Shown here piece by piece: positions 45,458 through 64,000 of a stretch of 64,000 nucleotides of DNA. The stretch lies in assembly GCF_988243305.1 (NCBI RefSeq), contig NZ_OZ547136.1; one strand, 5' to 3'. The notes below the pieces were generated by a model. It saw nothing but the letters and a program-made list of their open reading frames with translations, was not told the origin of the DNA and did not search any database. Position numbers and translations under genes: made by a program. Position 1 is the stretch's first letter; each line of letters starts with the position of its first letter.

Positions 45458-46239
45458 TTGAATTATTATTTCCCGGTTGGTTAGCCGGGATCATGCTCGC
45501 CTGTGCCGCGGGTCCGCTGGGTTCGTTTGTGGTCTGGCGTCGTATGTCTTATTTCGGTGATACGCTGGCCCATGCCTCATTACTTGGTGTCGCGTTTGGT
45601 TTGTTGCTGGACGTGAATCCATTCTATGCGGTGATTGCAGTTACGCTGCTGCTGGCGGGCGGTCTGGTATGGCTGGAGAAGCGTCCACAGCTGGCGATCG
45701 ACACGTTATTAGGGATTATGGCGCACAGTGCCCTGTCGCTGGGCCTGGTGGTCGTTAGTCTGATGTCTAATATTCGTGTTGATTTGATGGCTTACCTGTT
45801 CGGTGATTTGCTGGCAGTGACGCCAGAAGATCTCATCTCTATTGCAATTGGCGTGGTCATCGTGGTGGCGATTTTGTTCTGGCAATGGCGCAATTTGCTG
45901 TCGATGACGATTAGCCCGGATCTGGCGTTTGTTGATGGTGTGAAATTACAGCGCGTGAAATTGTTGTTGATGCTGGTGACGGCATTGACGATTGGTGTAG
46001 CGATGAAATTTGTCGGCGCGTTGATTATTACTTCGCTGCTGATTATTCCTGCAGCTACAGCGCGTCGCTTTGCCCGCACGCCGGAACAGATGGCCGGTGT
46101 CGCTGTTTTGGTGGGAATGGTGGCAGTAACTGGCGGTTTAACCTTTTCCGCATTTTACGATACGCCGGCGGGTCCGTCGGTAGTGCTATGTGCGGCACTG
46201 TTATTTATTATCAGTATGATGAAAAAGCAGGCCAGTTAA
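45454..46239 (+). CDS. znuB: Zinc ABC transporter permease ZnuB
   Basis: 261-aa polytopic membrane protein overlapping the znuC stop. Confidence 0.96.
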
Positions 46240-46257
46240 TCTATCGCTGAACACATT

Positions 46258-47402
<1,145 letters not shown>

Positions 47403-47407
47403 TTACC

Positions 47408-48019
47408 TCATAACGCGGCGCGTAGGGCTTCGCGAATTAATGTTTCACTGCTGGCGTCAGGGCGAGCGATTTTGCTCACCATGCGGCTTGCTTCTTGTGG
47501 TTTATAGCCCAGCGCCACCAGCGCGGCAACCGCTTCCTGTTCAGCATCGTCGGTCACCGGGCTGGCAGGTGACGTGAGTACCAGGTCGGCAGCTGGCGTA
47601 AAGAGATCGCCATGCAAACCTTTAAATCGGTCTTTCATTTCAACAATCAAGCGTTCGGCGGTTTTTTTGCCAATACCCGGCAGTTTCACTAGTGCCCCCA
47701 CTTCTTCACGCTCAACGGCATTAACGAACTGCTGCGCTGACATTCCAGAGAGGATCGCCAGCGCCAACTTCGGGCCGACGCCGTTGGTTTTGATCAACTC
47801 TTTGAACAACGTGCGCTCTTGTTTATTGTTAAAACCGTACAGCAGTTGCGCGTCTTCACGCACCACAAAGTGGGTGAAAACGATCGCTTCCTGACCCGCT
47901 TCAGGGAGTTCATAAAAACAGGTCATCGGCATATGCACTTCATAGCCTACGCCGCCCACTTCAATTAACACCAGCGGGGGTTGTTTTTCAATGATGATGC
48001 CTCTGAGTCTGCCTATCAC
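47408..48019 (-). CDS. ruvA: Holliday junction DNA helicase subunit RuvA
   Basis: 203-aa ORF upstream of ruvB. Confidence 0.97.
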
Positions 48020-48292: not shown

Positions 48293-48841
48293 GTGAATAT
48301 TAATTATCCTGCTGAATATGAAATTGGTGATATCATCTTTACATGTATAGGTGCTGCCTTATTTGGTCAAATATCAGCTGCATCAAATTGCTGGAGTAAT
48401 CACGTCGGGATCATTATCGGTCATAACGGTGAAGACTTTCTGGTTGCAGAAAGCCGTGTTCCCCTCTCAACCATCACTACGCTATCCCGTTTTATTAAAC
48501 GCTCTGCTAATCAACGCTATGCTATAAAGCGATTAGACGCCGGGCTAACAGAACAACAAAAACAACGAATTGTTGAACAGGTTCCCTCCCGGCTACGCAA
48601 ACTTTACCACACCGGTTTTAAATACGAATCTTCGCGCCAGTTCTGTTCAAAATTTGTCTTTGATATTTATAAAGAGGCACTATGTATTCCGGTGGGTGAA
48701 ATAGAGACGTTTGGAGAACTGTTAAACAGCAATCCAAATGCAAAACTCACTTTCTGGAAATTCTGGTTCCTGGGTTCTATTCCGTGGGAGCGTAAAACCG
48801 TCACGCCAGCCAGTTTGTGGCATCATCCGCGTTTGGTGTAA
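48293..48841 (+). pseudogene. yebB: yebB with its 3' end interrupted by IS10
   Basis: Frame reads ...SLWHHPRLV then stops inside the IS; the same frame resumes after the IS at 50168 (LIHAEGVETPQPELTEAV*). Start placed at a probable GTG (MNINYPAEY...). Confidence 0.75.
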
Positions 48842-50167
48842 GGAGATCCCCTCATAATTTCCCCAAAGCGTAACCATGTGTGAATAAATTTTGAGCTAGT
48901 AGGGTTGCAGCCACGAGTAAGTCTTCCCTTGTTATTGTGTAGCCAGAATGCCGCAAAACTTCCATGCCTAAGCGAACTGTTGAGAGTACGTTTCGATTTC
49001 TGACTGTGTTAGCCTGGAAGTGCTTGTCCCAACCTTGTTTCTGAGCATGAACGCCCGCAAGCCAACATGTTAGTTGAAGCATCAGGGCGATTAGCAGCAT
49101 GATATCAAAACGCTCTGAGCTGCTCGTTCGGCTATGGCGTAGGCCTAGTCCGTAGGCAGGACTTTTCAAGTCTCGGAAGGTTTCTTCAATCTGCATTCGC
49201 TTCGAATAGATATTAACAAGTTGTTTGGGTGTTCGAATTTCAACAGGTAAGTTAGTTGCTAGAACCCATGGCTCCTTTGCCGACGCTGAGTAGATTTTAG
49301 GTGACGGGTGGTGACAATGAGTCCGTGTCGAGCGCTGATTTTTTCGGCCTTTAGAGCGAGATTTATACAATAGAATTTGGCATGAGATTGGATTGCTTTT
49401 AGTCAGCCTCTTATAGCCTAAAGTCTTTGAGTGACTAGATGACATATCATGTAAGTTGCTGATAGGTTTCCAGTTTTCCGCTCCTAGGTCTGCATATTGT
49501 ACTTTTCCTCTTACTCGACTTAACCAGTACCAACCCAGCTTCTCAACGGATTTATACCATGGCACTTTAAAGCCAGCATCACTGACAATGAGCGGTGTGG
49601 TGTTACTCGGTAGAATGCTCGCAAGGTCGGCTAGAAATTGGTCATGAGCTTTCTTTGAACATTGCTCTGAAAGCGGGAACGCTTTCTCATAAAGAGTAAC
49701 AGAACGACCGTGTAGTGCGACTGAAGCTCGCAATACCATAAGTCGTTTTTGCTCACGAATATCAGACCAGTCAACAAGTACAATGGGCATCGTATTGCCC
49801 GAACAGATAAAGCTAGCATGCCAACGGTATACAGCGAGTCGCTCTTTGTGGAGGTGACGATTACCTAACAATCGGTCGATTCGTTTGATGTTATGTTTTG
49901 TTCTCGCTTTGGTTGGCAGGTTACGGCCAAGTTCGGTAAGAGTGAGAGTTTTACAGTCAAGTAATGCGTGGCAAGCCAACGTTAAGCTGTTGAGTCGTTT
50001 TAAGTGTAATTCGGGGCAGAATTGGTAAAGAGAGTCGTGTAAAATATCGAGTTCGCACATCTTGTTGTCTGATTATTGATTTTTGGCGAAACCATTTGAT
50101 CATATGACAAGATGTGTATCTACCTTAACTTAATGATTTTTACCAAAATCATTAGGGGATTCATCAG
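48839..50167 (-). mobile_element. IS10 insertion sequence (1329 bp)
   Basis: 402-aa IS10 transposase ORF; outside end reads CTGATGAATCCCCTAATGATTTTGGTA at 50167; identical 9-bp direct repeats cgtttggtg at 48830-48838 and 50168-50176. Confidence 0.88.
48852..50060 (-). CDS. IS10 (IS4-family) transposase
   Basis: 402-aa ORF MCELDILHDSLYQFCPELHLKRLNSLTLACHALLDCKTLTL... matching the recalled Tn10/IS10 transposase. Confidence 0.95.
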   Translation of the reverse strand: MCELDILHDSLYQFCPELHLKRLNSLTLACHALLDCKTLTLTELGRNLPTKARTKHNIKRIDRLLGNRHLHKERLAVYRWHASFICSGNTMPIVLVDWSDIREQKRLMVLRASVALHGRSVTLYEKAFPLSEQCSKKAHDQFLADLASILPSNTTPLIVSDAGFKVPWYKSVEKLGWYWLSRVRGKVQYADLGAENWKPISNLHDMSSSHSKTLGYKRLTKSNPISCQILLYKSRSKGRKNQRSTRTHCHHPSPKIYSASAKEPWVLATNLPVEIRTPKQLVNIYSKRMQIEETFRDLKSPAYGLGLRHSRTSSSERFDIMLLIALMLQLTCWLAGVHAQKQGWDKHFQANTVRNRNVLSTVRLGMEVLRHSGYTITREDLLVAATLLAQNLFTHGYALGKL

Positions 50168-50234
50168 CGTTTGGTGTTGATTCATGCGGAGGGAGTGGAA
50201 ACGCCTCAGCCGGAACTGACCGAGGCGGTATAAC

Positions 50235-50756
50235 TTAACGCAGTCGCCCTCTCGCCAGGTTCAGCCGCGATTCGCTCATCTGCATCGCATTCTGACTGAC
50301 GTGACAATGGGTAATCGCGATAGCTAATGCATCGGCAGCATCCGCCTGTGGATTAGCGGGCAGTTTCAGCAAGGTGCGGACCATATGCTGCACCTGGCTT
50401 TTTTCAGCACTACCAATACCTACCACCGTTTGCTTTACCTGACGTGCCGCATATTCAAATACCGGCAATTCCTGATTCACCGCCGCCACAATCGCCACGC
50501 CGCGTGCCTGCCCCAGTTTCAGGGCTGAGTCAGCGTTCTTCGCCATAAAGACTTGTTCAATGGCGAAATAATCAGGCTGGAACTGGGTAATGATTTCCGT
50601 CACGCCCGCATAGATGAGCTTCAGACGAGACGGTAAATCATCCACTTTGGTGCGTATGCATCCGCTACCCAGGTAGGAGAGTTGCCTGCCTACCTGGCGG
50701 ATGACGCCATAGCCGGTCACGCGCGAACCCGGGTCAATACCGAGAATAATAGCCAT
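50235..50756 (-). CDS. ruvC: Holliday junction resolvase RuvC
   Basis: 173 aa from the second Met ([18 protein letters not shown]...). Confidence 0.96.
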
Positions 50757-53902: not shown

Positions 53903-54211
53903 GAGATATCCCTTAACTTAGCTGCCGGCGGATGCCCCCTGCTGCGCAGGTGACCAAGTCGCAGCGTTAGCTGTATGTCACAACTGAATGAAAAAAGGCG
54001 GCTATTATACTGGAAATTCTGCCGCACCGTAAGAGCCTGGCCCGCGCTGGAACACCTCGTTACCACTTTATATCGGGCCTGAAATCAGACTCTACGCCAG
54101 TTTGCTATAAAGGTGTTGCCCGAACTCATAAAAATTAACAAAATTTGTCGTTCCGCCATCGGCTAATCGCATTAAGGTGAGAGGCACTATTTTGTTTTGT
54201 CAGGAGTCATC

Positions 54212-54778
54212 ATGCTTGAACTTAATGCTAAAACCACTGCGCTGGTGGTGATTGATTTACAAGAAGGCATCTTACCTTTTGCCGGAGGTCCACATACTGC
54301 CGATGAGGTGGTTAATCGCGCCGGGAAGCTGGCGGCGAAATTTCGCGCGAGCGGTCAGCCCGTGTTTCTGGTGCGCGTTGGCTGGTCTGCCGATTATGCC
54401 GAAGCATTAAAACAGCTGGTTGATGTCCCCTCCCCCGCGAAAGTGTTACCCGAAAACTGGTGGCAACATCCTGCTGCATTAGGTGCAACCGACAGCGATA
54501 TCGAAATCATCAAACGTCAATGGGGTGCGTTTTACGGTACGGATCTGGAGTTGCAACTGCGCCGCCGGGGTATCGATACAATAGTATTATGTGGGATCTC
54601 GACCAATATCGGTGTTGAATCCACCGCCCGCAATGCCTGGGAACTCGGTTTTAATCTGGTGATTGCCGAAGACGCCTGCAGCGCCGCCAGCGCCGAGCAG
54701 CACAATAACAGCATCAACCATATCTACCCACGCATCGCCCGTGTGCGCAGTGTGGAAGAGATCCTCAACGCATTATGA
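54212..54778 (+). CDS. yecD: Isochorismatase-family hydrolase YecD
   Basis: Start at [20 protein letters not shown]... (188 aa). Confidence 0.93.
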
Positions 54779-54885
54779 TTTACATCGGTCTGCCGCAATG
54801 GTCGCATCCTAAATGGGTGCGGTTGGGGATCACCAGCCTTGAAGAGTATGCCCGCCACTTTAACTGCGTGATACGGAATTTTTAA
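54775..54885 (+). pseudogene. yecE: 5' fragment of yecE, interrupted by prophage integration
   Basis: ATG overlaps the yecD stop (ATGA) and encodes [32 protein letters not shown], matching recalled YecE for about 32 codons; the frame then diverges and stops after 4 codons (IRNF*). Confidence 0.8.
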
Positions 54886-54997
54886 AAATCACTAAAGAAC
54901 GCCCAAGAGCATGTTTTTTATTTAGAAGAATCAAAGCGTTGTATTTCCATGTCATATAAAAATCGGCAAAGTTCATATGTAACAAAGTGTCCCAATC

Positions 54998-55046
54998 ATG
55001 CCCCAAAATGCCCCACAACAAATATTTTTGCCCCATGCATGCCCCA
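54998..55046 (+). repeat. Four direct repeats of (A)TGCCCCA in the prophage arm
   Basis: atgcccca at 54998, 55008, 55039 and tgcccca at 55029. Confidence 0.6.
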
Positions 55047-55067
55047 AAAAATCACTTTCCTTCACCC

Positions 55068-55119
55068 TTGACACTGTTTATCCATACAGTTAAAAATGAT
55101 ACTGTATACAAACACAGTG
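55068..55119 (+). promoter_or_regulatory. Promoter with two tandem LexA boxes upstream of the dinI-like gene
   Basis: TTGACA at 55068-55073; CTGT-N8-ACAG boxes at 55072-55091 (cactgtttatccatacagtt) and 55100-55119 (tactgtatacaaacacagtg); RBS agaggg before the ATG. Confidence 0.75.
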
Positions 55120-55132
55120 TAGAGGGACTTTT

Positions 55133-55381
55133 ATGCGTATTGAAATCTGCATAGCCAAAGAAAAAATGACTAAAATGCCAACCGGTGCTGTGGATGCGTT
55201 AAAGGAAGAATTAACTCGGCGCATCAGTAAGCGTTATGACGATGTAGAAGTGATCGTAAAAGCCACCAGCAATGATGGGCTTTCTGTTACACGCACAGCA
55301 GATAAGGATTCTGCAAAAACATTTGTTCAGGAGACTCTGAAAGATACCTGGGAGTCTGCTGACGAGTGGTTTGTTCACTAA
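55133..55381 (+). CDS. DinI-family DNA-damage-inducible protein (prophage-encoded)
   Basis: 82-aa [12 protein letters not shown]...[11 protein letters not shown] resembling E. coli DinI (MRIEVTIAK...TWESADDWFV). Confidence 0.85.
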
Positions 55382-55449
55382 TAAACACGTAAAATCGGTA
55401 ACGGCTGGAAATCATTCAATACTCGCACTATCGAAAGTTCACCAGCCAA

Positions 55450-55495
55450 CCGCAGCACGTCCTGCATACGTCGTGTCTGCGGTTTTTCTTTTTCG
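55450..55495 (+). terminator. Hairpin and T-run downstream of the dinI-like gene
   Basis: ccgcagcacgtcctgcatacgtcgtgtctgcgg followed by tttttctttttcg. Confidence 0.55.
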
Positions 55496-55496
55496 C

Positions 55497-55766
55497 TTAC
55501 ATTGTGTCTGGTTCTTCCGGCCACTCAATATCAGGTGCAGTTGATGTATCAACACGGTTCAGCAACACCCGATATTTATTCCATGCCTCCAGCAACGATC
55601 TTTCTTCCTCCGTTGCGATTTCCAGATCTACAGCATCCTGCAGTGGCGCAATATACTCACTGAATTCCTGGATGTAGAACTGTGTGGTGACGGTCTTCCA
55701 GCCATTCGGCTCCTGCTGTATCGAAGCATACCAGGCTATTTCAATATCGCTATGCTGCGGCAGCAT
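55497..55766 (-). pseudogene. Tail fiber assembly protein remnant (C-terminal Tfa domain with unrelated N-terminus)
   Basis: C-terminal about 50 aa ([45 protein letters not shown]) near-identical to the full tfa at 56546-57130; about 150 bp of DNA is a direct repeat of the tfa 3' end. Confidence 0.7.
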
Positions 55767-55822
55767 TTAACCCCTTGTAATTCATCGCCATAATTGATTT
55801 AATTCACAAATAAAACTATAAC

Positions 55823-56491
55823 ATGGTGAAATCAATGAAAAAAAACACAGATGATGGGGCTAAAATTTACACACCACTTACCCTAAAGCTTTATGACTGG
55901 TGGGTTTTGGGAGTATCAAATCGGCTTGCATGGGGATGTCCTACAAAGGAACACCTTCTTCCACACTTTCTGGAACATTTAGGTAACAACCATCTGGATA
56001 TTGGTGTTGGAACTGGGTTTTATCTTACTCACGTACCTGAGAGTAGTCTGATATCTTTAATGGATTTGAACGAAGCTAGCCTGAACGCGGCATCTACAAG
56101 GGCTGGGGAATCAAAAATTAAACATAAAATTAGCCATGATGTTTTTGAACCTTATCCCGCGGCGTTACATGGTCAATTTGATTCCATTTCCATGTTTTAC
56201 CTTCTTCACTGCCTGCCTGGAAATATATCTACAAAAAGCTGTGTAATACGCAATGCGGCGCAGGCCTTAACTGACGATGGAACTCTATACGGAGCCACAA
56301 TTCTTGGCGATGGAGTTGTGCACAATAGCTTCGGTCAAAAACTGATGCGCATTTACAATCAGAAAGGCATCTTTTCAAACACAAAAGATTCCGAAGAAGG
56401 CTTAACACATATACTCTCAGAGCATTTCGAGAATGTTAAAACCAAGGTTCAAGGTACTGTAGTAATGTTTTCCGCTTCAGGGAAAAAATAG
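55823..56491 (+). CDS. Class I SAM-dependent methyltransferase of unknown specificity (prophage moron); start may be the ATG at 55835
   Basis: 222-aa ORF with Rossmann motif I (LDIGVGTGFY), acidic post-I residue (LMDLNE) and motif II-like FDSISMFYLLHCLP; no DNA-methyltransferase motifs (DPPY or PC dipeptide); local composition visibly AT-rich. Confidence 0.8.
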   Translation: MVKSMKKNTDDGAKIYTPLTLKLYDWWVLGVSNRLAWGCPTKEHLLPHFLEHLGNNHLDIGVGTGFYLTHVPESSLISLMDLNEASLNAASTRAGESKIKHKISHDVFEPYPAALHGQFDSISMFYLLHCLPGNISTKSCVIRNAAQALTDDGTLYGATILGDGVVHNSFGQKLMRIYNQKGIFSNTKDSEEGLTHILSEHFENVKTKVQGTVVMFSASGKK

Positions 56492-56499
56492 CATCCAAC

Positions 56500-56535
56500 C
56501 GCAGCACGTTCTTGCTTAAGACGTGCTGCGGCATA
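56500..56535 (-). terminator. Hairpin terminator downstream of tfa
   Basis: Perfect 11-bp stem ccgcagcacgt / acgtgctgcgg with a T-run on the minus strand. Confidence 0.6.
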
Positions 56536-56545
56536 ATCCCAATGA

Positions 56546-57130
56546 TTACTCACTGACAGGGTTCGTAGGCCACTCAATATCAGGTGCAGTTGATGTATCA
56601 ACACGGTTCAGCAACACCCGATACTTCTTCCAGGCTTCCAGCAACGAGTTTTCTTCCTCCGTTGCGATTTCCAGATCTGCAGCATCCTGAAGCGGCGCAA
56701 TATGCTCACTGGCTACCTGCATCAGGTTGTTTTTTGTTTCTTCCGCCTCCCGGATCCGGAACAGTTTTTCTGCTTCCGTATCCTTCACCCAGGCTGTGCC
56801 GTTCCACTTCTGAAACTCCCCTTCCGGCGATAACCAGGTAACATTTTCCGGTAACGGACCGAGTTCAGAAATAAATAACGCGTCGCCGGAAGCCACGTCA
56901 TAAACCGTTTTACCCCGATGGTCTTCAAAGAGATGCCACGATGACTCATCACTGTTGAAAACAGCCACGAAGCCAGCAGGAATATCTGGTGGTGCAATAT
57001 CGGTACTGTTTGCTGGCAGACCTGTATGAGGCGGAATATATGCGTCACCTTCACCAATAAATTCATTAGTTCCGGCCAGCAGATTATAAATTTTTATGGT
57101 CCGTGGTTGTTCACTCATTCTGAATGCCAT
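56546..57130 (-). CDS. tfa: Tail fiber assembly protein Tfa
   Basis: 194-aa ORF overlapping the stf stop by 1 nt; matches lambdoid Tfa. Confidence 0.92.
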
Positions 57131-59826
57131 TATGCAAGCCTCACAATGTAGTTAAATGCGATGTTTTTGACGGTGTTTTCCGCGTTACCCGCAGCGTTAA
57201 CGGTGATGGTATGTCCATGTGAACCAATCGCAACGGAGTGCGTATGAGCACCAATACCGACAGTATGCGCGTGTGCACCTGCAGATGCTGCTGTGCCGGA
57301 CAGTGAGTGGCTATGATTACCATCTGTACTGGTATTCGCTAACCACCCCGTAGACATACCTACTGAGCCTTGTACACCCCAGGTATTTTGACCTGAGCTT
57401 GTATAACCATATTGATAAGTATCTTTAAAAACACTGGGGTTAAATCGACGGCCATCTCTATGGCTGTGATTACCAGCTGCATTCGTGCTGCCACTTAAAC
57501 TATGGGTATGCGCACCAGTGTTATTCGTGGATTTAGTGCCGTAATCAAACGACGATGTGGTTTTCGTCCCCAAATCCGTACTGGATGCGCTGGCGCTGTG
57601 GGTGTGCGATTTAATGCCGTCCCGTTCCTGAGACAATACGGCACGACCACTGGCAGGTTTGCCCTTAATCGTCCAGCCACGCATATCAGGGATCACGCCT
57701 GACGGATAAGCGGCTGCAAGTTCCGGGTAGGCAGATTTGTCAAAAGTCTGCCCCTGCATCAGGGCATAACCAGACGGAACGGTATCCGATGGCCACGGGA
57801 TTGGTGCGCCAGGCGGATAAAACTGCTCTGATGGCGTATAGAGTGAATAAACTGTACCGTCCGTTAACCCTTCCGGCTTATTAGCAGAATATGCTGGTGA
57901 CGTATGAATCGTCACGCTGGCATTACTGGTATAATCCCATTGAATATTTACACCAGTCGCATAATTTCCGATTGCAACGTAAATATCGTAAGTATCACCA
58001 GATGTATTGACCCAGGCAAAATTTGTAAACCCTGTCGATGTGCGCTGCCATAAAGCACCAGTAATCCCCTTCGGATTACCATTACCTGCACGCAAAACAA
58101 GTTCAGATATACCTGCCTGTTGAGGTGAACCGACGTTAAATCCAGCGCCACCAATCAACGTAATTGAAACAACAGAACTCGCCTGTGGCATGGTTACCGT
58201 TGCTAATTTGAACCAACCAGCACCACCGCTGAATGACATTGTTGTTGAGTTAAGCGTACCAATATCTTTCGGCGTCAGTGTTATATCCTCCGAAAGCGCC
58301 TTACCATTCACCTTACGGTCAGAAGGTACCCGATCATTCGCATTGTCATTCGCTGCTTTAACTGCCTTCGGTGTCGCGGCAAGCGTTTCAGACGTACTGT
58401 TTGTCGCACTGCTGAGCTGTACTATCCCCTTTTTCGTCGTGCTCGCATCCTCAAGCGCCACGGCGGATGCAATATCCTCTGCCCGTTTTGCCGCTGTCTC
58501 AGCGCGCGTTGCTGCGGATTCTGCCGTACTTTTGCTCTGTGCTGCCGCTGTCGCACTGCCAGCAGCCTCTGTCGCCTTTGTGGATGCCGTCGTGGCGCTG
58601 CTCTTCGCTGCTGACGCCTGTCTGGTCGCCTCATCTTTTGAAGCAGACGCCGATGATGCCGATGACGCCGCCGAACTGGCGGACGATGCCGCTGCCGTTT
58701 TTGAGGATTCTGCGCTGGTTTCCGACGCTTTCGCGTTCGTTTCGGATGTCTTCGCTGAGGAAGCAGACCTCGCTGCTGCGCTGGCCTGTTCAGTGGCTTC
58801 GCCAGTCTTCGTTGTGGCTGTTGAAGCGGATGATGCGGCGCTTTCTGCCGATTTTCCGGCGGCGGTGGCACTGACTGAGGCCTGCCCGGCACTTGTTGAT
58901 GCGGCACTGGCGGACGACGCAGCCGCTGTTTTTGAATCTGCCGCAGCTGAGGCACTCTGTCCCGCTGCCGTTTCAGAAGACCTGGCGTTCGTCTCGGACG
59001 TTTTGGCCGCCTTCGCAGAATTTGCTGTCGCCGTTGCCGAGGAAGCTGCGCTGCTGGCGCTCGAGGCTGCGCTCGTTTCTGATGATTTTGCCGCCTCTTT
59101 TGAAGCCGACGCATCCCGGGCTGAGGTGGCAGCTTCTGACGCTTTCGTGGTCGCGGTGGATGCAGAAGTGGCTGCTGATTGTTGTGACGCTGCGGCATTC
59201 GTTTCTGACGTTTTCGCCGCAGCGGCACTGGTGGCCGCCGCGCTTTTTGAGGACTCTGCAGCGGCAGCACTTTTTTCCGCTTCAGTGGCCTTTGTTGATG
59301 CCGTTTCTGCGCTGGAAGACGCTGACTGAGCCGACGACGCGGCCTGTCCGGCTGACATGCTGGCTGCGCGTGCTGAGCCTGCAGCATCAGTCGCATGGGT
59401 TGCCGCCTCACGGGCTGATGTGCTGGCATCGCCGGCTGACTTCTTCGCGGCTGCCGTGTTCTGTGCCACTGCGGACGCGTTACGCTCCACCTCTTCCACC
59501 ATCACTTCAAAACGGCGCAGTGCCTCCGGTCGGACATCATCCTCCGTCATGGCACCGAGAAAATCATTCAGCGTACCTGGTCTGGAACCTTCATAGACGG
59601 TAATGGTCCCGGCATGTGAAGGCGGAAAACCTTCAACCAGCAGGGTGACGCTGTACTGACCATGCTCAACATCCATGCTGTAACGTCCGGCTTCATCCGG
59701 ATTTTCAGAGGCCACCGTGTTCACCACCACCGTGCTGCTGGTTCGTCTGGCCTTCAGCACAATGGTGCAGTTCTGTACTGGTTTTCCTGTGCCATCTTTA
59801 AGCACGCCAGAAATTTTTACTGTCAT
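57130..59826 (-). CDS. stf: Side tail fiber protein Stf
   Basis: 898-aa ORF with conserved N-terminus ([17 protein letters not shown]...), long Ser/Ala/Thr-rich repeat region, and C-terminal HxH-repeat region (HTHS, GAHTHS, GNHSHS, GSHGHT). Confidence 0.93.
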
Positions 59827-59837
59827 ACTTTTCCACC

Positions 59838-59875
59838 AATAAAAAAAGCCCGCAGCAGTGACGCCACGGGCTTCA
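59838..59875 (-). terminator. Hairpin and T-run between lom and stf
   Basis: Minus strand reads agcccgtggcgtcactgctgcgggc followed by ttttttt. Confidence 0.5.
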
Positions 59876-59977
59876 GGACAGTGTAACTTTACGTTTCCTC
59901 AAACGCAGTTCACCCCATAAGGTGGATGAACCTGCGTATCATAACAATATTTACAGAAGATAAATCGGCGTCTGTTG

Positions 59978-60577
59978 TCAGAAACGGTATCCGATACCAA
60001 CAATAAATGCATCCGTTCGCCAGTCGCCACTACCGGAACCTTCATAAGCAAGGTCAATGGTCACGGATTCGGTCGGGTTAAACTGCACGCCAGCCCCCCA
60101 CGCCAGAGACGTGTTGCTGTGGCGACCGTCATCACTTCCGGTCAGCACATCGTGCGTTTTCCCCTTGTTGTCAGTTACGCGGAGATAATCCCCGGAGAAA
60201 GTCGACACACGGCTGTAAGACACACCCGCCATCGCATACGCGCTGAACCATTCATTCACGCGCACAGACGGCCCCGCCATTACGCTGAACCAGCGGTTAC
60301 GAACGGAATCTTCATGCCAGCGGGTATCGCTGTAACGGGTCAGCTGGCGATTCTTGTCTCCTGCATAGCTGAATGACGTCACCAGCCCCAGTGTGTCCGT
60401 AAACTCATAACGGTATTTCACGTTAATCCCGTTCAGATCATCACTGCCGGGGACGTTCGTCGAGGCATGAAGATACCCCGCGCTCAGCGTGGACTGATGT
60501 TCAGACGCCCATGCAGGCGCACCGGATACGGCCAGACAAATGGCTGCGGACAAAATTGCTGCACAAACTTTACGCAT
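59978..60577 (-). CDS. lom: Outer membrane protein Lom (Ail/PagC/OmpX family)
   Basis: 199-aa ORF with signal peptide and beta-barrel ending in the aromatic residue typical of outer membrane proteins (GIGYRF); position between J and stf as in lambda. Confidence 0.92.
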   Translation of the reverse strand: MRKVCAAILSAAICLAVSGAPAWASEHQSTLSAGYLHASTNVPGSDDLNGINVKYRYEFTDTLGLVTSFSYAGDKNRQLTRYSDTRWHEDSVRNRWFSVMAGPSVRVNEWFSAYAMAGVSYSRVSTFSGDYLRVTDNKGKTHDVLTGSDDGRHSNTSLAWGAGVQFNPTESVTIDLAYEGSGSGDWRTDAFIVGIGYRF

Positions 60578-60599
60578 AATTACCTCTCGCTTTTCTGCA

Positions 60600-60635
60600 A
60601 TAAAAAAGGCGTCACTCCTGACGCCCTTTATTGGG
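60600..60635 (-). terminator. Hairpin and T-run between J and lom
   Basis: Minus strand reads aaagggcgtcaggagtgacgcc followed by ttttttatt. Confidence 0.5.
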
Positions 60636-60647
60636 GTTATAAATATT

Positions 60648-63600
60648 TCAACGAATACTGATGCCGGAAGCGGCTTTTTTGGTCACAATCACCGTACAGT
60701 CGGTGATATTGCCTGCCCCCTGATTGCCTTTCTGGAAAATCTTAAACTCCAGAGTGACGCTACCACCACCACTAGGCATATCAATAACTGCACTGTAACT
60801 ACCGGGAATGGCCCCTTTAGTTTCTCTGGATGCGATTAATACGCCGTTTTTGCGAACTTCAAAACCATAACCCGTGTATCGCGTGCCTCCTGGGTTATTT
60901 CCGCTCCCCGGATCGTCATACGCTATACCGTTAAAAATAATGGGCGGAATAATAATCTGGCGGTCAAAGTTATGATCATCGCTGATGGTGACTGTAACCG
61001 TACCGTTTGGTGTTTCCGTGTTACCCCACGTACCGACTTTTTTCGGGAAGGCTTTTGATACAGCTTTAACGAAATCCCCTCTGACCTGGGTCGCCTCCAG
61101 CATGCCCTTAATCGTACAGTTCTGGTTAATCTTGACATTGTTGAGCGTTCCTGAGTTCGCATTCACACTGCCACTGATATCCGCATTTTTAGCGGTCAGC
61201 TTTCCGTCTGATGTCAGGGAAAATACCGGAGGACTGCCACCGCTGGTAATGGTGGGGGCCGTCAGGCGCTTCAGGAACACGTCGTTCATGAATATCTGGT
61301 TGCCCTGCGCCACAAACATCGGCGTTTCATTCCCGTTTGCCGGGTCAATAAACGCGATACGGTTAGCGGCAACCAGAAACTGGCTCAGCTTGCCTTCCTC
61401 CGTGTCCTCCATGCTGAGGCCAATACCCGCGACATAATGTTTGCCGTCTTTGGTCTGCTCAATTTTGACGCCCCACATGGCATTCCATTTATCGTTAGCG
61501 TCCTTCCACTCTTTCGAAAACTCCTCCAGTCTGCTGGCGTTATCTTCCGTCAGCTCAAAGTTTTCCAGCAGTTCCTTGCCGAGATGCGTTTTATTGATCA
61601 ACCCTTTATAAAAATTCAGATAACCTTCCGCATCATCGCTCGCCCGACCGACGGCCTCCACAAATGCCGATTTACCAACGGTGTTCACGCTGCGGATATA
61701 AAAGTAATAATCATAACCTGGCTTAATATTGCTACTGGCGGCTATCCAGTACAGCGCCGTACCAAGATAACGCGCGCTGGTTTCAACCTGCCTGATATCG
61801 ATAATCCGCTTTTCCGAGAACCAGAACTCAAACTGCACCGTCGGGTCATATACAGCCAGTTTCGGGACCGCTGTTATCTGAAAATACCCTGGTATCAGTT
61901 CAATAGTGACAGGCGCTGCCGGTGCCGCAATCCGGAACGATACCGATGCCGGATCGCCCTGCTGCCCCCACGCATTTACCGCCCGGACCGTCAGCGTGTA
62001 ACGCCCCAGCGCCAGTTGCCTGAAGCGGTATGTGGTTTCCGCCGTCCGGGCCGTGCTGACCAGCCGCTCACTGCCGTCATCCGCTGTTACGGTCAGACGG
62101 AGCAGGAAGCTCACGCCCTTCACCACCTTCGGCGTGTCCCAGCGCGCCAGCACCTGGTATTCCCCGCTGTCTGCGGTGACTTCTGCGGTCAGGTGCTGCA
62201 CCGCTGGCGGCGTGACACCATTTACCGTGCCGCTCTGGTCGCCGTCAAAGTGCGCCCCGTTATCCACGATGGCCTCTTTTTCCGGTACATGCTGCACGGC
62301 GGTGATGGCATACGTGCCGTCGTCGTTCTCACGGATACTCACGCAGCGGAACAGGCGCTGGCGCAGCGTCGGCAGCTTCAGCCCCCATACGCTGTATTCA
62401 GCAACGCCGTCAGGAACACGGCTCACTTTCACCTTCACGCCGTCGGTGACGGACTGAACCTCCACGCTGACCGGACTCCCCTGCCCGTCAACCAGGCTTA
62501 TCAGCGTGGTGCCGGAAGATGGCAGCGTGATTTCACGGTCGAGCGTCAGCGTCCGGGTCTGGCTGTTTACCGCCAGCACGCGCCCGCCGGTGCGGATACC
62601 GGCATAGTCATCATCGCAGATTTCAATGACATCGCCCGGTACATGGCGAAGCCCTTCGGCACCCACGCTGAAGTCCACGGTCTGCGTTTCCAGCAGTTCT
62701 GTTTTAATCAGCCACAGCCCGGCGCGGTGTGCCTGCCCCCGGCTGGTACAGCCAAAAGCATCCATCTTCGTGACGTTACGACCGTAACGGGCAATGGCCT
62801 GCGTGTCCTCCACAAGCTCTGTCGCCGTCTCCCAGCCGTTATTCGGGTCAATCCAGTTCACCTCAACGGCATTATGGCGGTCCTTCAGGGCGCTGAAGCT
62901 GTAGCGGAACGGCGCGCCATCATCCGGCATCACCACATTACTGCGGTTATAGGTCCACACCTTATCCGACGGTCGGTCCTGCACGAACGTCAGCGTCTGC
63001 CCGTTCCATACCGGCATACAGCGCATCGCCGAGCAGAAATCACTGAGCACATCCCACGCCTTACGCTGTGTGGTCAGCCAGGCATTACAGGTGATGCGCG
63101 GCTCCGTGCCGCCAAAACCATTCGGTACCAACTGGTCGCAGTACTGGCCGATAACGTACAGCGCCCATTTGTCCACATCTGCCGCACCAAGACGTTTCCC
63201 CATGCCGTAGCGCGGGTGGGTCAGCATATCCCACAGACACCAGGCCATGTTGTTGCTGTATGCTGGCTTTAACGTTCCGTCCCAGATACCGCTGTATTGC
63301 CGCGTCTGCGGGTTATAGTTCGACGGCACCTGCAGAATACGCCCGCGAAGATGATAATTACGGCTCACCTGCTGGCTGCCGAACTGCTCCGAGTCCACCT
63401 GCACGCCGACCAGTGCCGTGTTCGGGTAGCACTGTTTCACATCGATGATTTCGGTGTATGACGACCAGAGCGTTTTGTTCTGCAGCTGGTCTGTGGTGCT
63501 GTCCGGCGTCATCCTGCGCATCCGGATATTAAACGGGCGCGGCGGCAGGCTACCCACCACCACCGAGGCCAGATACTGCGAGGTGGTTTTGCCCTTAATG

Positions 63601-64000
63601 GTGATGTCTTTTTCCGTCACCCAGCCACCGTTACGTTGTATCTGAACCAGCAGACGGACTTCCGACGGATTCCTGTCACCCTTTGAGGTGTTTTCCACCA
63701 GTGCCTGTACACCGAAGGTAAAGCGCAGACGGTCGATGTTTGCAGACGTAATGGTGCGGGTGATCGGCGTGTCATATTTCACTTCCGTACCCAGCACCGT
63801 CTCGGAGCCGGAGGATTCAAACCCCTCCGGCGGTGTCTGCTCCTGCTCACCGGCACGGAACACCACCGTGACACCGGAGATGTTGGTATTCCCCTCAGTG
63901 TCCAGCACCGGCGTACTGTTCAGCAGCACGCTTTTTAATCCATCCACCGGACCTTCAACCGGCCCTTCGCTGATGGCATCGATCACACTCAGCAACTGCG
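60648..64000 (-). CDS. J: Tail tip host-specificity protein J; 5' end lies beyond the window
   Basis: At least 1115 aa closely resembling lambda J from [11 protein letters not shown] onward; lambda J has about 20 further N-terminal residues, so the true start is outside the window. Confidence 0.93.

Follow-up and report, generated by a model that had tools for sequence, protein, structure and literature searches.

An IS10 copy with a variant inside end at a recurrently used target in the 3' end of yebB

Background

Transposition of IS10 is of the cut-and-paste kind, with a DNA hairpin as intermediate, and insertions of Tn10 and IS10 are accompanied by 9-bp duplications of the target. Mutations in bp 1-3 of an end are said to lower transposition strongly, a result attributed to Huisman et al. 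1989 and Haniford & Kleckner 1994 and cited at second hand in PMC4027188. The transposase footprint extends from bp +7 to +23 (PMC3159471). In genetic and biochemical work on Tn10, an end carrying mutations next to the cleavage site is reported to regain catalysis when its partner is wild-type (Huisman et al. 1989; Liu et al.). A second property of the element, its outward promoter pOUT, drives adjacent genes, for example where IS10 has inserted at otsBA in evolved rpoS mutants (PMC2744996). The consensus for IS10 targets, and a penalty for T at its second position, are described in the same source (PMC2744996).

Here we describe an IS10 copy in the 3' end of yebB. We use "window" for the whole stretch of DNA that was analysed, 64 kb in length.

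Results

The window carries a complete IS10 of 1329 bp on the minus strand (48839..50167), with the outside end at 50167 and the inside end at 48839, as delimited by alignments to the copies in R100 and in E. coli strains 142 and S103EC. Its boundaries can be read directly: the element starts TAAGGAGATCCCCTCAT and finishes GGGGATTCATCAG. Compared with IS10-Right of Tn10 (R100, NC_002134), which carries the NCBI PGAP label "IS4-like element ISVsa5 family", 1322 of 1329 nucleotides are identical. Four of the seven differences form the inside-end terminus, where CTGA is replaced by TAAG. At bp 47 and bp 83 the window copy agrees with IS10-Left and is therefore a mosaic, and at bp 203 it has one synonymous change. 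It shares with R100 IS10-Right the length of 1329 bp, RNA-OUT, the dam site of the inside end and the 9-bp target duplication.

An intact transposase gene (48852..50060, minus strand) encodes 402 amino acids. This is the single DDE transposase ORF in the element; it starts at bp 108 from the outside end, matches Pfam DDE_Tnp_1 and specifies the same amino acid sequence as the R100 IS10-Right transposase. The terminal repeat of the outside end (50145..50167, minus strand) is CTGATGAATCCCCTAATGATTTT, an exact match at 23 of 23 positions to the canonical CTGATGAATCCCC..., and the outside end does not differ from R100 IS10-Right over bp 1-46. Both its body and its transposase thus belong to the IS10-Right type, and the element is a complete and apparently functional member of the IS4 family. 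The composite structure of Tn10, an inverted pair of IS10 copies around the tet genes, is absent: there is one inside end and one outside end in the 64-kb window, and the 9-bp duplication directly borders the single IS10 copy.

The duplicated 9-mer, CGTTTGGTG, lies at 48830..48838 on the left and 50168..50176 on the right. Both copies were found by direct reading and by a repeat finder, which lengthened the pair to 10 bp by one chance T, and the right copy was also identified by comparison with an empty site. There are only three occurrences of the 9-mer in the 64-kb window. In strain 19KM1831, whose yebB is uninterrupted, a single CGTTTGGTG stands precisely where the two window junctions join, indicating that the repeat is a true target-site duplication and did not arise by chance. 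The sequence-only reading of this DNA had described a 1329-bp IS10 between identical 9-bp flanks with a canonical outside end, and these results bear it out, coordinates included.

Truncated yebB (48293..48841, plus strand) consists of 182 codons followed by a TAA, which is made up of the three bases at the tip of the IS10 inside end. The frame ends ...HHPRLV-TAA, with the stop at 48839-48841, and the protein is thereby shortened from 200 to 182 amino acids. The 18 C-terminal residues that are lost, LIHAEGVETPQPELTEAV, persist as an orphaned remnant of 18 codons and a stop (50177..50233, plus strand), which was recognised by alignment to the intact gene of strain 19KM1831. Both the reading frame and the comparison with the intact protein agree with the earlier claim that the last 18 codons had been exchanged for this TAA. 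Pfam Peptidase_C92 spans residues 10-181 of the truncated protein, and a database record of the identical 182-aa product is named as a partial YebB protein of E. coli. From the viewpoint of annotation this is a routine IS10 insertion, which leaves a poorly characterised gene for a papain-like amidase 18 codons shorter and ruvAB and ruvC intact.

The 3' end of yebB is a recurrently used IS10 target. Seven other complete E. coli genomes have IS10 at exactly the same site, in both orientations and always with a CTGA inside end. The orientation seen in the window, at the identical phosphodiester, was found in C9, ET12567, VE-F10, OZ121069 and PEC399, which together carry three IS10 sequence types; the opposite orientation was detected in PCN061 and O177:H21 with a chimeric junction query. 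The first five insertions to be found all had the window orientation, and the idea of an orientation bias was dropped when the two opposite ones came to light. In the canonical insertions the yebB frame continues into an IS-encoded tail of 14 residues, whereas the TAAG insertion brings a clean stop on TAA. The core of the target, GTTTGGT, matches the IS10 consensus NGCTNAGCN at only three of six positions, and the site was still used in all seven of the other genomes. Our literature search found no mention of IS10 together with yebB. The yebB target, (C/G)GTTTGGTG, is precise and reused despite its poor match to the consensus, which should help in the interpretation of IS10 insertions in natural strains and in laboratory strains, ET12567 being one of the latter.

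These insertions also bear on where the element ends. The direct repeat reaches 10 bp both in the window (CGTTTGGTGT) and in strain 142 (TGCTCTGCAT), as would be expected of a mobile unit of 1328 bp that began at AAGGAG and duplicated 10 bp. The seven canonical yebB insertions are all in a 9-bp register, however, with T as the first unduplicated base, and because they share this register, the window insertion used the same phosphodiesters if the T belongs to the element. The duplications of Tn10 and IS10 are, moreover, known to be 9 bp long. The coincidence that a 9-bp duplication requires has a chance of only about 1/16, and a 10-bp duplication requires an equal one, namely a T at independent sites. 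We regard the 1328-bp unit as highly improbable and retain the 1329-bp element with a 9-bp duplication.

The inside end departs from the canonical CTGAGAGATCCCC..., in which the terminal CTG is included, at its extremity. Positions 48839..48842 (IS10 bp 1329-1326) read TAAG for CTGA, as judged by comparison with both IS10-Right and IS10-Left of R100, whereas bp 5-23 of the end are identical to the canonical sequence. This remainder of the inverted repeat (48843..48861) is an exact match to GAGATCCCCTCATAATTTCC, has the dam site GATC at 48845-48848 and shows no differences from R100. The sequence-only reading had suspected a variant in the last few nucleotides by contrast with an expected inside end, CTGAGAGATCCCCTCAT; this expectation was accurate, being exactly the sequence of both reference copies, and the alignment to an IS10 reference that it had proposed as a check upheld the termini, the R100 references lacking TAAG. 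With membership in IS10 standing on overall identity, the window copy is by alignment a terminal variant of that element.

Several sources of the tetranucleotide were considered and set aside. Inheritance from IS10-Left is ruled out, as the R100 IS10-Left inside end is CTGA. A mis-resolved hairpin opened off centre would leave palindromic additions (TCAG-CTGAGAG) or a loss of 4 bp, but never TAAG. Gene conversion from another copy was rejected by reasoning: with no homology beyond the terminus, co-conversion could not include the outermost 4 bp. As a separate matter, TAAGGAG was considered as the Shine-Dalgarno sequence of a coupled ORF and discarded, no ATG, GTG or TTG being present within 5-13 nt; the sole candidate start is an ATT followed by eight codons.

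TAAG ends are extremely rare. Among approximately 4,270 inside ends the variant was found at one locus, common to two related genomes. These are the two positive records of the 918 from E. coli (3052 inside ends in total); plasmids yielded none in 1172 inside ends, and all 52 inside ends from metagenomes read CTGA, with no TAAG. JGI metagenomes likewise gave none. Two scans of GTDB, which had no positive control and carry little weight, returned no TAAG in the species representatives and no inside end with a base other than T at +2.

Mis-polishing is one conceivable source of four odd consecutive bases that coincide with a repeat boundary. The same junction, however, occurs in a Logan contig built from short reads, which matches the window at 100% identity and was seen in two samples, so that TAAG is not a long-read or assembly error, and the same terminus is present in two complete genomes, from Switzerland and Australia, whose assemblies are independent of each other. 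The likelihood of a sequencing or assembly artefact is negligible.

The Logan contig ends exactly 30 nt inside IS10. The Logan pipeline uses k=31, and a break at this point is what would be expected if the genome held one or more further copies that end in TAAG but border on other sequence.

The two complete genomes provide evidence that the TAAG element has moved. In E. coli strains 142 and S103EC, an IS10 copy identical to that of the window at 1329 of 1329 positions, TAAG included, sits at an unrelated chromosomal site with TGCTCTGCA on each side, its own 9-bp duplication. The empty site reconstructed from the strain 142 locus is present in strains 32-4 and OW967966 as a 300-nt match of 100% identity. 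An identical copy elsewhere, with a duplication of its own and a matching empty site, suggests that the element has transposed; its complete identity at an unrelated site further suggests that TAAG was already present in the donor and is compatible with transposition. By the same comparisons, the variant terminus marks a rare IS10 lineage and is not an oddity of the window copy alone, and we infer that the window element is active in transposition. With two documented insertion sites and a further presumptive one, its activity could be very low.

These observations have to be weighed against another history, in which TAAG arose by mutation after the insertion into yebB and the window holds a decaying, immobilised IS10 with an inside end that can no longer be cleaved. 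Hairpin processing depends to an important degree on the terminal base pairs, the flipped T+2 among them, and the extreme rarity of TAAG among the approximately 4,270 inside ends would fit such a dead end. Against this stands the copy in strains 142 and S103EC, which is identical throughout and has its own duplication and a demonstrable empty site. Two independent and identical four-base substitutions are not credible, gene conversion is unable to carry the outermost 4 bp for the reason given above, and segmental transfer together with flanks is excluded by the different flanks of the yebB and strain 142 copies. The transposase and the outside end are, moreover, intact. Mutation after insertion is therefore very unlikely, and we consider it probable that an intact IS10, with a TAAG end that was present in the donor and compatible with transposition, inserted at the recurrent yebB target.

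The outside end of the element faces ruvC. RNA-OUT (50053..50122, plus strand; Rfam RF00240) was identified at full length (1-70) with 99.5 bits, the gathering score being 41; it opposes the 5' end of the transposase mRNA, and its stem is the inverted repeat I1. A consensus promoter scan of the region found no sigma-70-like site, and pOUT was positioned by the RNA-OUT 5' end instead of by promoter hexamers. From this start site transcription would head towards the outside end and ruvC (50235..50756, minus strand), which is intact and convergent with both yebB and pOUT, as judged by protein identity and the annotation of related loci. Its product is identical to RuvC of strains 19KM1831 and C9. 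A 10-bp G+C-rich hairpin 7 nt past the ruvC stop (50202..50227, minus strand) is a candidate ruvC terminator; the RNA fold is weak (z-score -1.6, with a short U tract) and the hairpin was not detected in a terminator scan. Lying on the ruvC side of the insertion, it is intact.

In this geometry, the insertion might matter mainly through pOUT, with antisense read-out lowering the expression of RuvC and producing a DNA-repair phenotype. The start site lies 183 nt from the ruvC stop and is aimed at the gene, and expression of neighbouring genes from pOUT is on record, IS10 at otsBA being one case. Antisense transcription into the 3' end of ruvC is, however, the native state, given that yebB and ruvC converge with 1 nt between their stop codons, as the uninterrupted yebB-ruvC region of strain 19KM1831 confirms; that comparison, too, had been suggested by the earlier reading. 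Further points against the proposal are that the defined 70-nt form of RNA-OUT ends within IS10, that the predicted hairpin lies between IS10 and ruvC, and that the coding sequence and promoter side of ruvC are untouched. The opposite orientation of the insertions in PCN061 and O177:H21 implies that orientation is not under selection, and at the yebB site we saw no sign of selection for the orientation of pOUT. Because of the native convergence and these opposite insertions, an effect of pOUT on ruvC is unsupported; the notion is very improbable, slightly more so than mutation after insertion, and the pointing of pOUT and RNA-OUT at the 3' end of ruvC is probably without consequence. Of the claim that an outward promoter runs antisense to ruvC, the geometry stands, and nothing suggests either an effect or selection.

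Discussion

How might an element with such a terminus insert into the recurrent yebB target and duplicate CGTTTGGTG? The part of the inside end that would be bound by transposase, bp 5-23 with the dam site, has kept its sequence and could still pair with the canonical outside end bound by IHF. Transposase would place its cut at a set distance from where it binds, and the wild-type partner end would make up for the defective cleavage-proximal sequence. The origin of TAAG may be sought in a rearrangement that swapped the last 4 bp for flanking DNA. Since cleavage would be measured from the binding site, these flanking 4 bp could thereafter have become part of the element. A single rearrangement is the simplest origin because all four bases changed at once; the capture of flanking DNA is nonetheless purely conjectural.

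The end mutations of the Tn10 rescue studies were reportedly single-base changes, and a quadruple change might be expected to be dead, given the strong effect of mutations in bp 1-3. We put at about even the chance that there is an IS10 lineage in nature that spreads although the conserved CTG, with its flipped T+2, is missing from one terminus. If so, the cleavage-proximal sequence would be dispensable in vivo at one end when the partner is wild-type, and acquisition of the new end by capture of 4 bp of flank would be suggested as well. An attenuated end might also reduce transposition and rearrangements mediated by the inside end, thereby aiding the persistence of the copy. If the activity were confirmed, the variant would provide a measure of how much the "invariant" bases at an IS4-family terminus can drift naturally. 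Neither the hot spot nor the TAAG end alters the current understanding of how IS10 works.

The insertion in yebB resembles that at otsBA in having the same outward promoter and a recurrent, precise and non-optimal target (PMC2744996). The two differ in that pOUT at otsBA runs in the sense direction into a 5' end and was selected in one orientation, whereas at yebB it is aimed at the 3' end of a gene in convergent orientation and insertions of both orientations occur naturally. With respect to its termini, the TAAG element amounts to a natural test of the laboratory findings on coupled active sites in Tn10 and the buffering of mutations at one end. Like the rescued Tn10 mutant ends, it is changed only in the cleavage-proximal bases, with the binding region intact and a wild-type partner. 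Those ends were engineered and tested in the laboratory, whereas the window IS10 is natural, has all four terminal bases replaced, and owes the case for its mobility to genome comparisons.

An IS10 insertion in yebB

An ordinary IS10, apparently still mobile, has inserted in yebB; its inside-end terminus is a rare variant. Direct reading of 48500-50500 gives a 9-bp target duplication, CGTTTGGTG, at 48830-48838 and 50168-50176, and the 1329 bp between the two copies start with TAAGGAGATCCCCTCATAATTTCCCC and end with AAAATCATTAGGGGATTCATCAG. A repeat finder recovers the same pair, lengthened by one T to 10 bp, so that both approaches bear out the sequence-only reading of a 1329-bp IS10 flanked by 9-bp repeats. 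The sole long ORF within the element is that of the 402-aa transposase (48852-50060, minus strand), which has a DDE_Tnp_1 domain and starts 108 bp from the element's right-hand end, matching IS10. An Rfam match to RNA-OUT, complete in length, lies at 50053-50122 (plus strand) and scores 99.5 bits, where the gathering score is 41. Because the 64-kb window contains just a single inside end and a single outside end, the element is a solitary IS10, and Tn10 was rejected.

The genes ruvB (46389-47399) and ruvA (47408-48019), both on the minus strand, are followed by yebB (48293 onward, plus strand), which the IS interrupts before its tail. The orphaned tail (50177-50233) lies between the IS and ruvC (50235-50756, minus strand), beyond which come yebC, nudB and aspS, in that order. 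In E. coli 19KM1831, which of the complete genomes is nearest on the ruvC side (99.3% identity), yebB is uninterrupted and a single CGTTTGGTG sits precisely at the meeting point of the window's two junctions, which confirms the target duplication. On this comparison, the IS10 in yebB is a true insertion. Intact YebB has 200 aa, whereas the window product has 182 aa and ends in HHPRLV, followed by a TAA that the IS supplies with its first three bases; the claimed loss of the last 18 codons with an immediate stop therefore holds. The Pfam Peptidase_C92 match spans residues 10-184 in the intact protein and 10-181 in the truncated one, where the domain is thus almost complete.

Several other features of the region were observed. 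The yebB start codon at 48293 is GTG in the window lineage and ATG in 19KM1831. REP-type palindromic repeats occupy 46255-46385, between ruvB and an ORF ending at 46239, and a Logan contig break falls inside one of them. In a 40-bp stretch of the 3' part of ruvC (50298-50337), K-12-like alleles differ from the window at 11-12 positions, mostly three bases apart and silent; this stretch is identical to 19KM1831 and looks like a recombination patch. After yecD (54197-54778), yecE would be expected; in its place, 54779-64000 holds the end of a lambdoid prophage, apparently integrated at or within that gene. It carries a DinI-like ORF (55133-55381), a SAM methyltransferase (55823-56491), a tail-fibre assembly protein (56546-57130), a tail fibre (57130-59826), Lom (59978-60577) and tip attachment protein J (60648 to the window end).

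The outward promoter and ruvC

From its start at 50053, RNA-OUT points rightward, in the direction of the outside end (50167) and of the ruvC stop codon (50235, opposite strand). The proposal that the IS10 outward promoter, pOUT, faces the 3' end of ruvC therefore stands as geometry, in agreement with the orientation of RNA-OUT, but an effect of read-out on ruvC finds no support. Such transcription would be antisense, and pOUT can drive neighbouring genes (PMC2744996). However, uninterrupted yebB is already convergent with ruvC, their stop codons separated by a single base, and a 10-bp G+C-rich hairpin is weakly predicted between the IS and ruvC (50202-50227). Moreover, the insertion leaves ruvC intact both in its coding sequence and on its upstream side, the RuvC protein sequence is unaltered, and natural insertions at the yebB site occur in both orientations.

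An IS10 hot spot

The yebB site is a previously unremarked IS10 hot spot. Among 5,426 complete E. coli genomes, five (C9, the laboratory strain ET12567, VE-F10, OZ121069 and PEC399) have IS10 at the same position and in the same orientation; in each case the duplication is GGTTTGGTG and the inside end CTGA. Three sequence types are present, IS10-Right-like (C9), a Left/Right hybrid (ET12567) and exactly IS10-Left (VE-F10 group), and the insertions are therefore independent events. A chimeric query, in which the left flank was joined to the outside end, identified two further insertions in reverse orientation, in PCN061 (inside end CTGA, same duplication) and O177:H21. IS10 has landed in the 9-mer (C/G)GTTTGGTG in the window and in seven complete E. 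coli genomes, in both orientations. The core of this 9-mer, GTTTGGT, nevertheless matches only three of the six consensus positions of GCTNAGC, and T at the second consensus position is reported to be strongly disfavoured in another context (PMC2744996). Flanking context, the usual suspect, may account for the frequent use of the site. Two of the loci carry additional insertions: a second IS10 nested within the first in O177:H21 (locus L013, 1581-1900), and ISApl1 in yebB, upstream of the IS10, in PEC399 (locus L005, 440-1414).

A rare inside end

The exact 182-aa truncated YebB is present in an NCBI E. coli assembly, where the contig stops at the junction, and in a Logan contig from short reads, found in two samples, with the sequence cgtttggtg-taaggagatcccctcataatttccccaaag; each of these contigs matches the window at 100% identity. 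The same junction in short-read data rules out TAAG as an artefact. A TAAG inside end is very rare. For E. coli genomes, with 3,052 matches to the inside end, the alignment continues through TAAG in just two records; on plasmids it does so in 0 of 1,172 matches, and metagenome inside ends read CTGA in 52 of 52 copies. Scans of GTDB representatives (run without a positive control) and JGI metagenomes found no TAAG variant.

The two positive records, strains 142 (Switzerland, environment) and S103EC (Australia, human), have the element at one common locus, near argP and lysS. It equals the window IS10 at all 1329 positions and is flanked on both sides by TGCTCTGCA, a 9-mer matching five of six consensus positions; the reconstructed empty site is found in other strains (100% identity over 300 nt). 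An identical element with its own duplication and an empty site indicates at least two clean insertions of the same TAAG-ended element. Formally, the element could be 1328 bp long and its duplication 10 bp, since a T follows the right-hand 9-mer at both known TAAG sites, giving 10-bp repeats. However, the seven canonical insertions at the yebB site are in 9-bp register with that T unduplicated, and the coincidence needed by the 9-bp reading, about 1/16, is equalled by one in the 10-bp model. We therefore kept the 9-bp duplication.

The Logan contig breaks off exactly 30 nt inside the IS. At k=31, which we take to be the pipeline's value, this is the point where the assembly graph would branch if some other copy in that genome had the same sequence from T1 onward; had the other copies ended in CTGA, the contig would reach 34 nt. 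The source lineage is therefore likely to have at least one more TAAG copy, a third.

Comparison with known IS10 elements

The footprint of the transposase extends from bp +7 to +23, with the terminal bases distorted, not bound (PMC3159471). At the inside end in the window, the sequence of bp 5-23, dam site included, is canonical. The role of the terminal bases is catalytic: T+2 is flipped out and promotes hairpin resolution (PMC2705183). In the window inside end, +2 is A. According to two works cited in PMC4027188, the two active sites of Tn10 communicate; a wild-type partner end is reported to rescue catalysis at an end mutated near the cleavage site. Since the window element has exactly this configuration, a mutant inside end with an outside end and a transposase that are both wild type, we infer that reduced but real mobility is the best explanation. 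More speculatively, flanking DNA could have replaced the last 4 bp, cleavage then being measured from the binding site, which would explain a 4-base block change more easily than four point mutations. The significance of a TAAG-ended IS10 is modest, mainly for transposition specialists.

The window element differs from IS10-Right of R100, a plasmid with Tn10, at seven positions. Four are the terminal bases of the inside end (CTGA in the reference, TAAG in the window); the others are bp 203 (synonymous), bp 83 and bp 47, and the transposases are identical. IS10-Left of R100 shares bp 47 and bp 83 with the window element, but its inside end is also CTGA. The suspected terminal variant is therefore real, and the inside-end sequence that the sequence-only reading expected for IS10 matches the references exactly; its observation is confirmed and its interpretation is factually supported. 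Bp 47 and bp 83 mark the element as a natural mosaic: the body and the transposase are of the IS10-Right kind, while bp 83 (window 50085), within the RNA-OUT loop, and bp 47 (window 50121), at the RNA-OUT 3' end, follow IS10-Left. If RNA-IN starts at bp 81, as we presume, bp 83 is RNA-IN +3.
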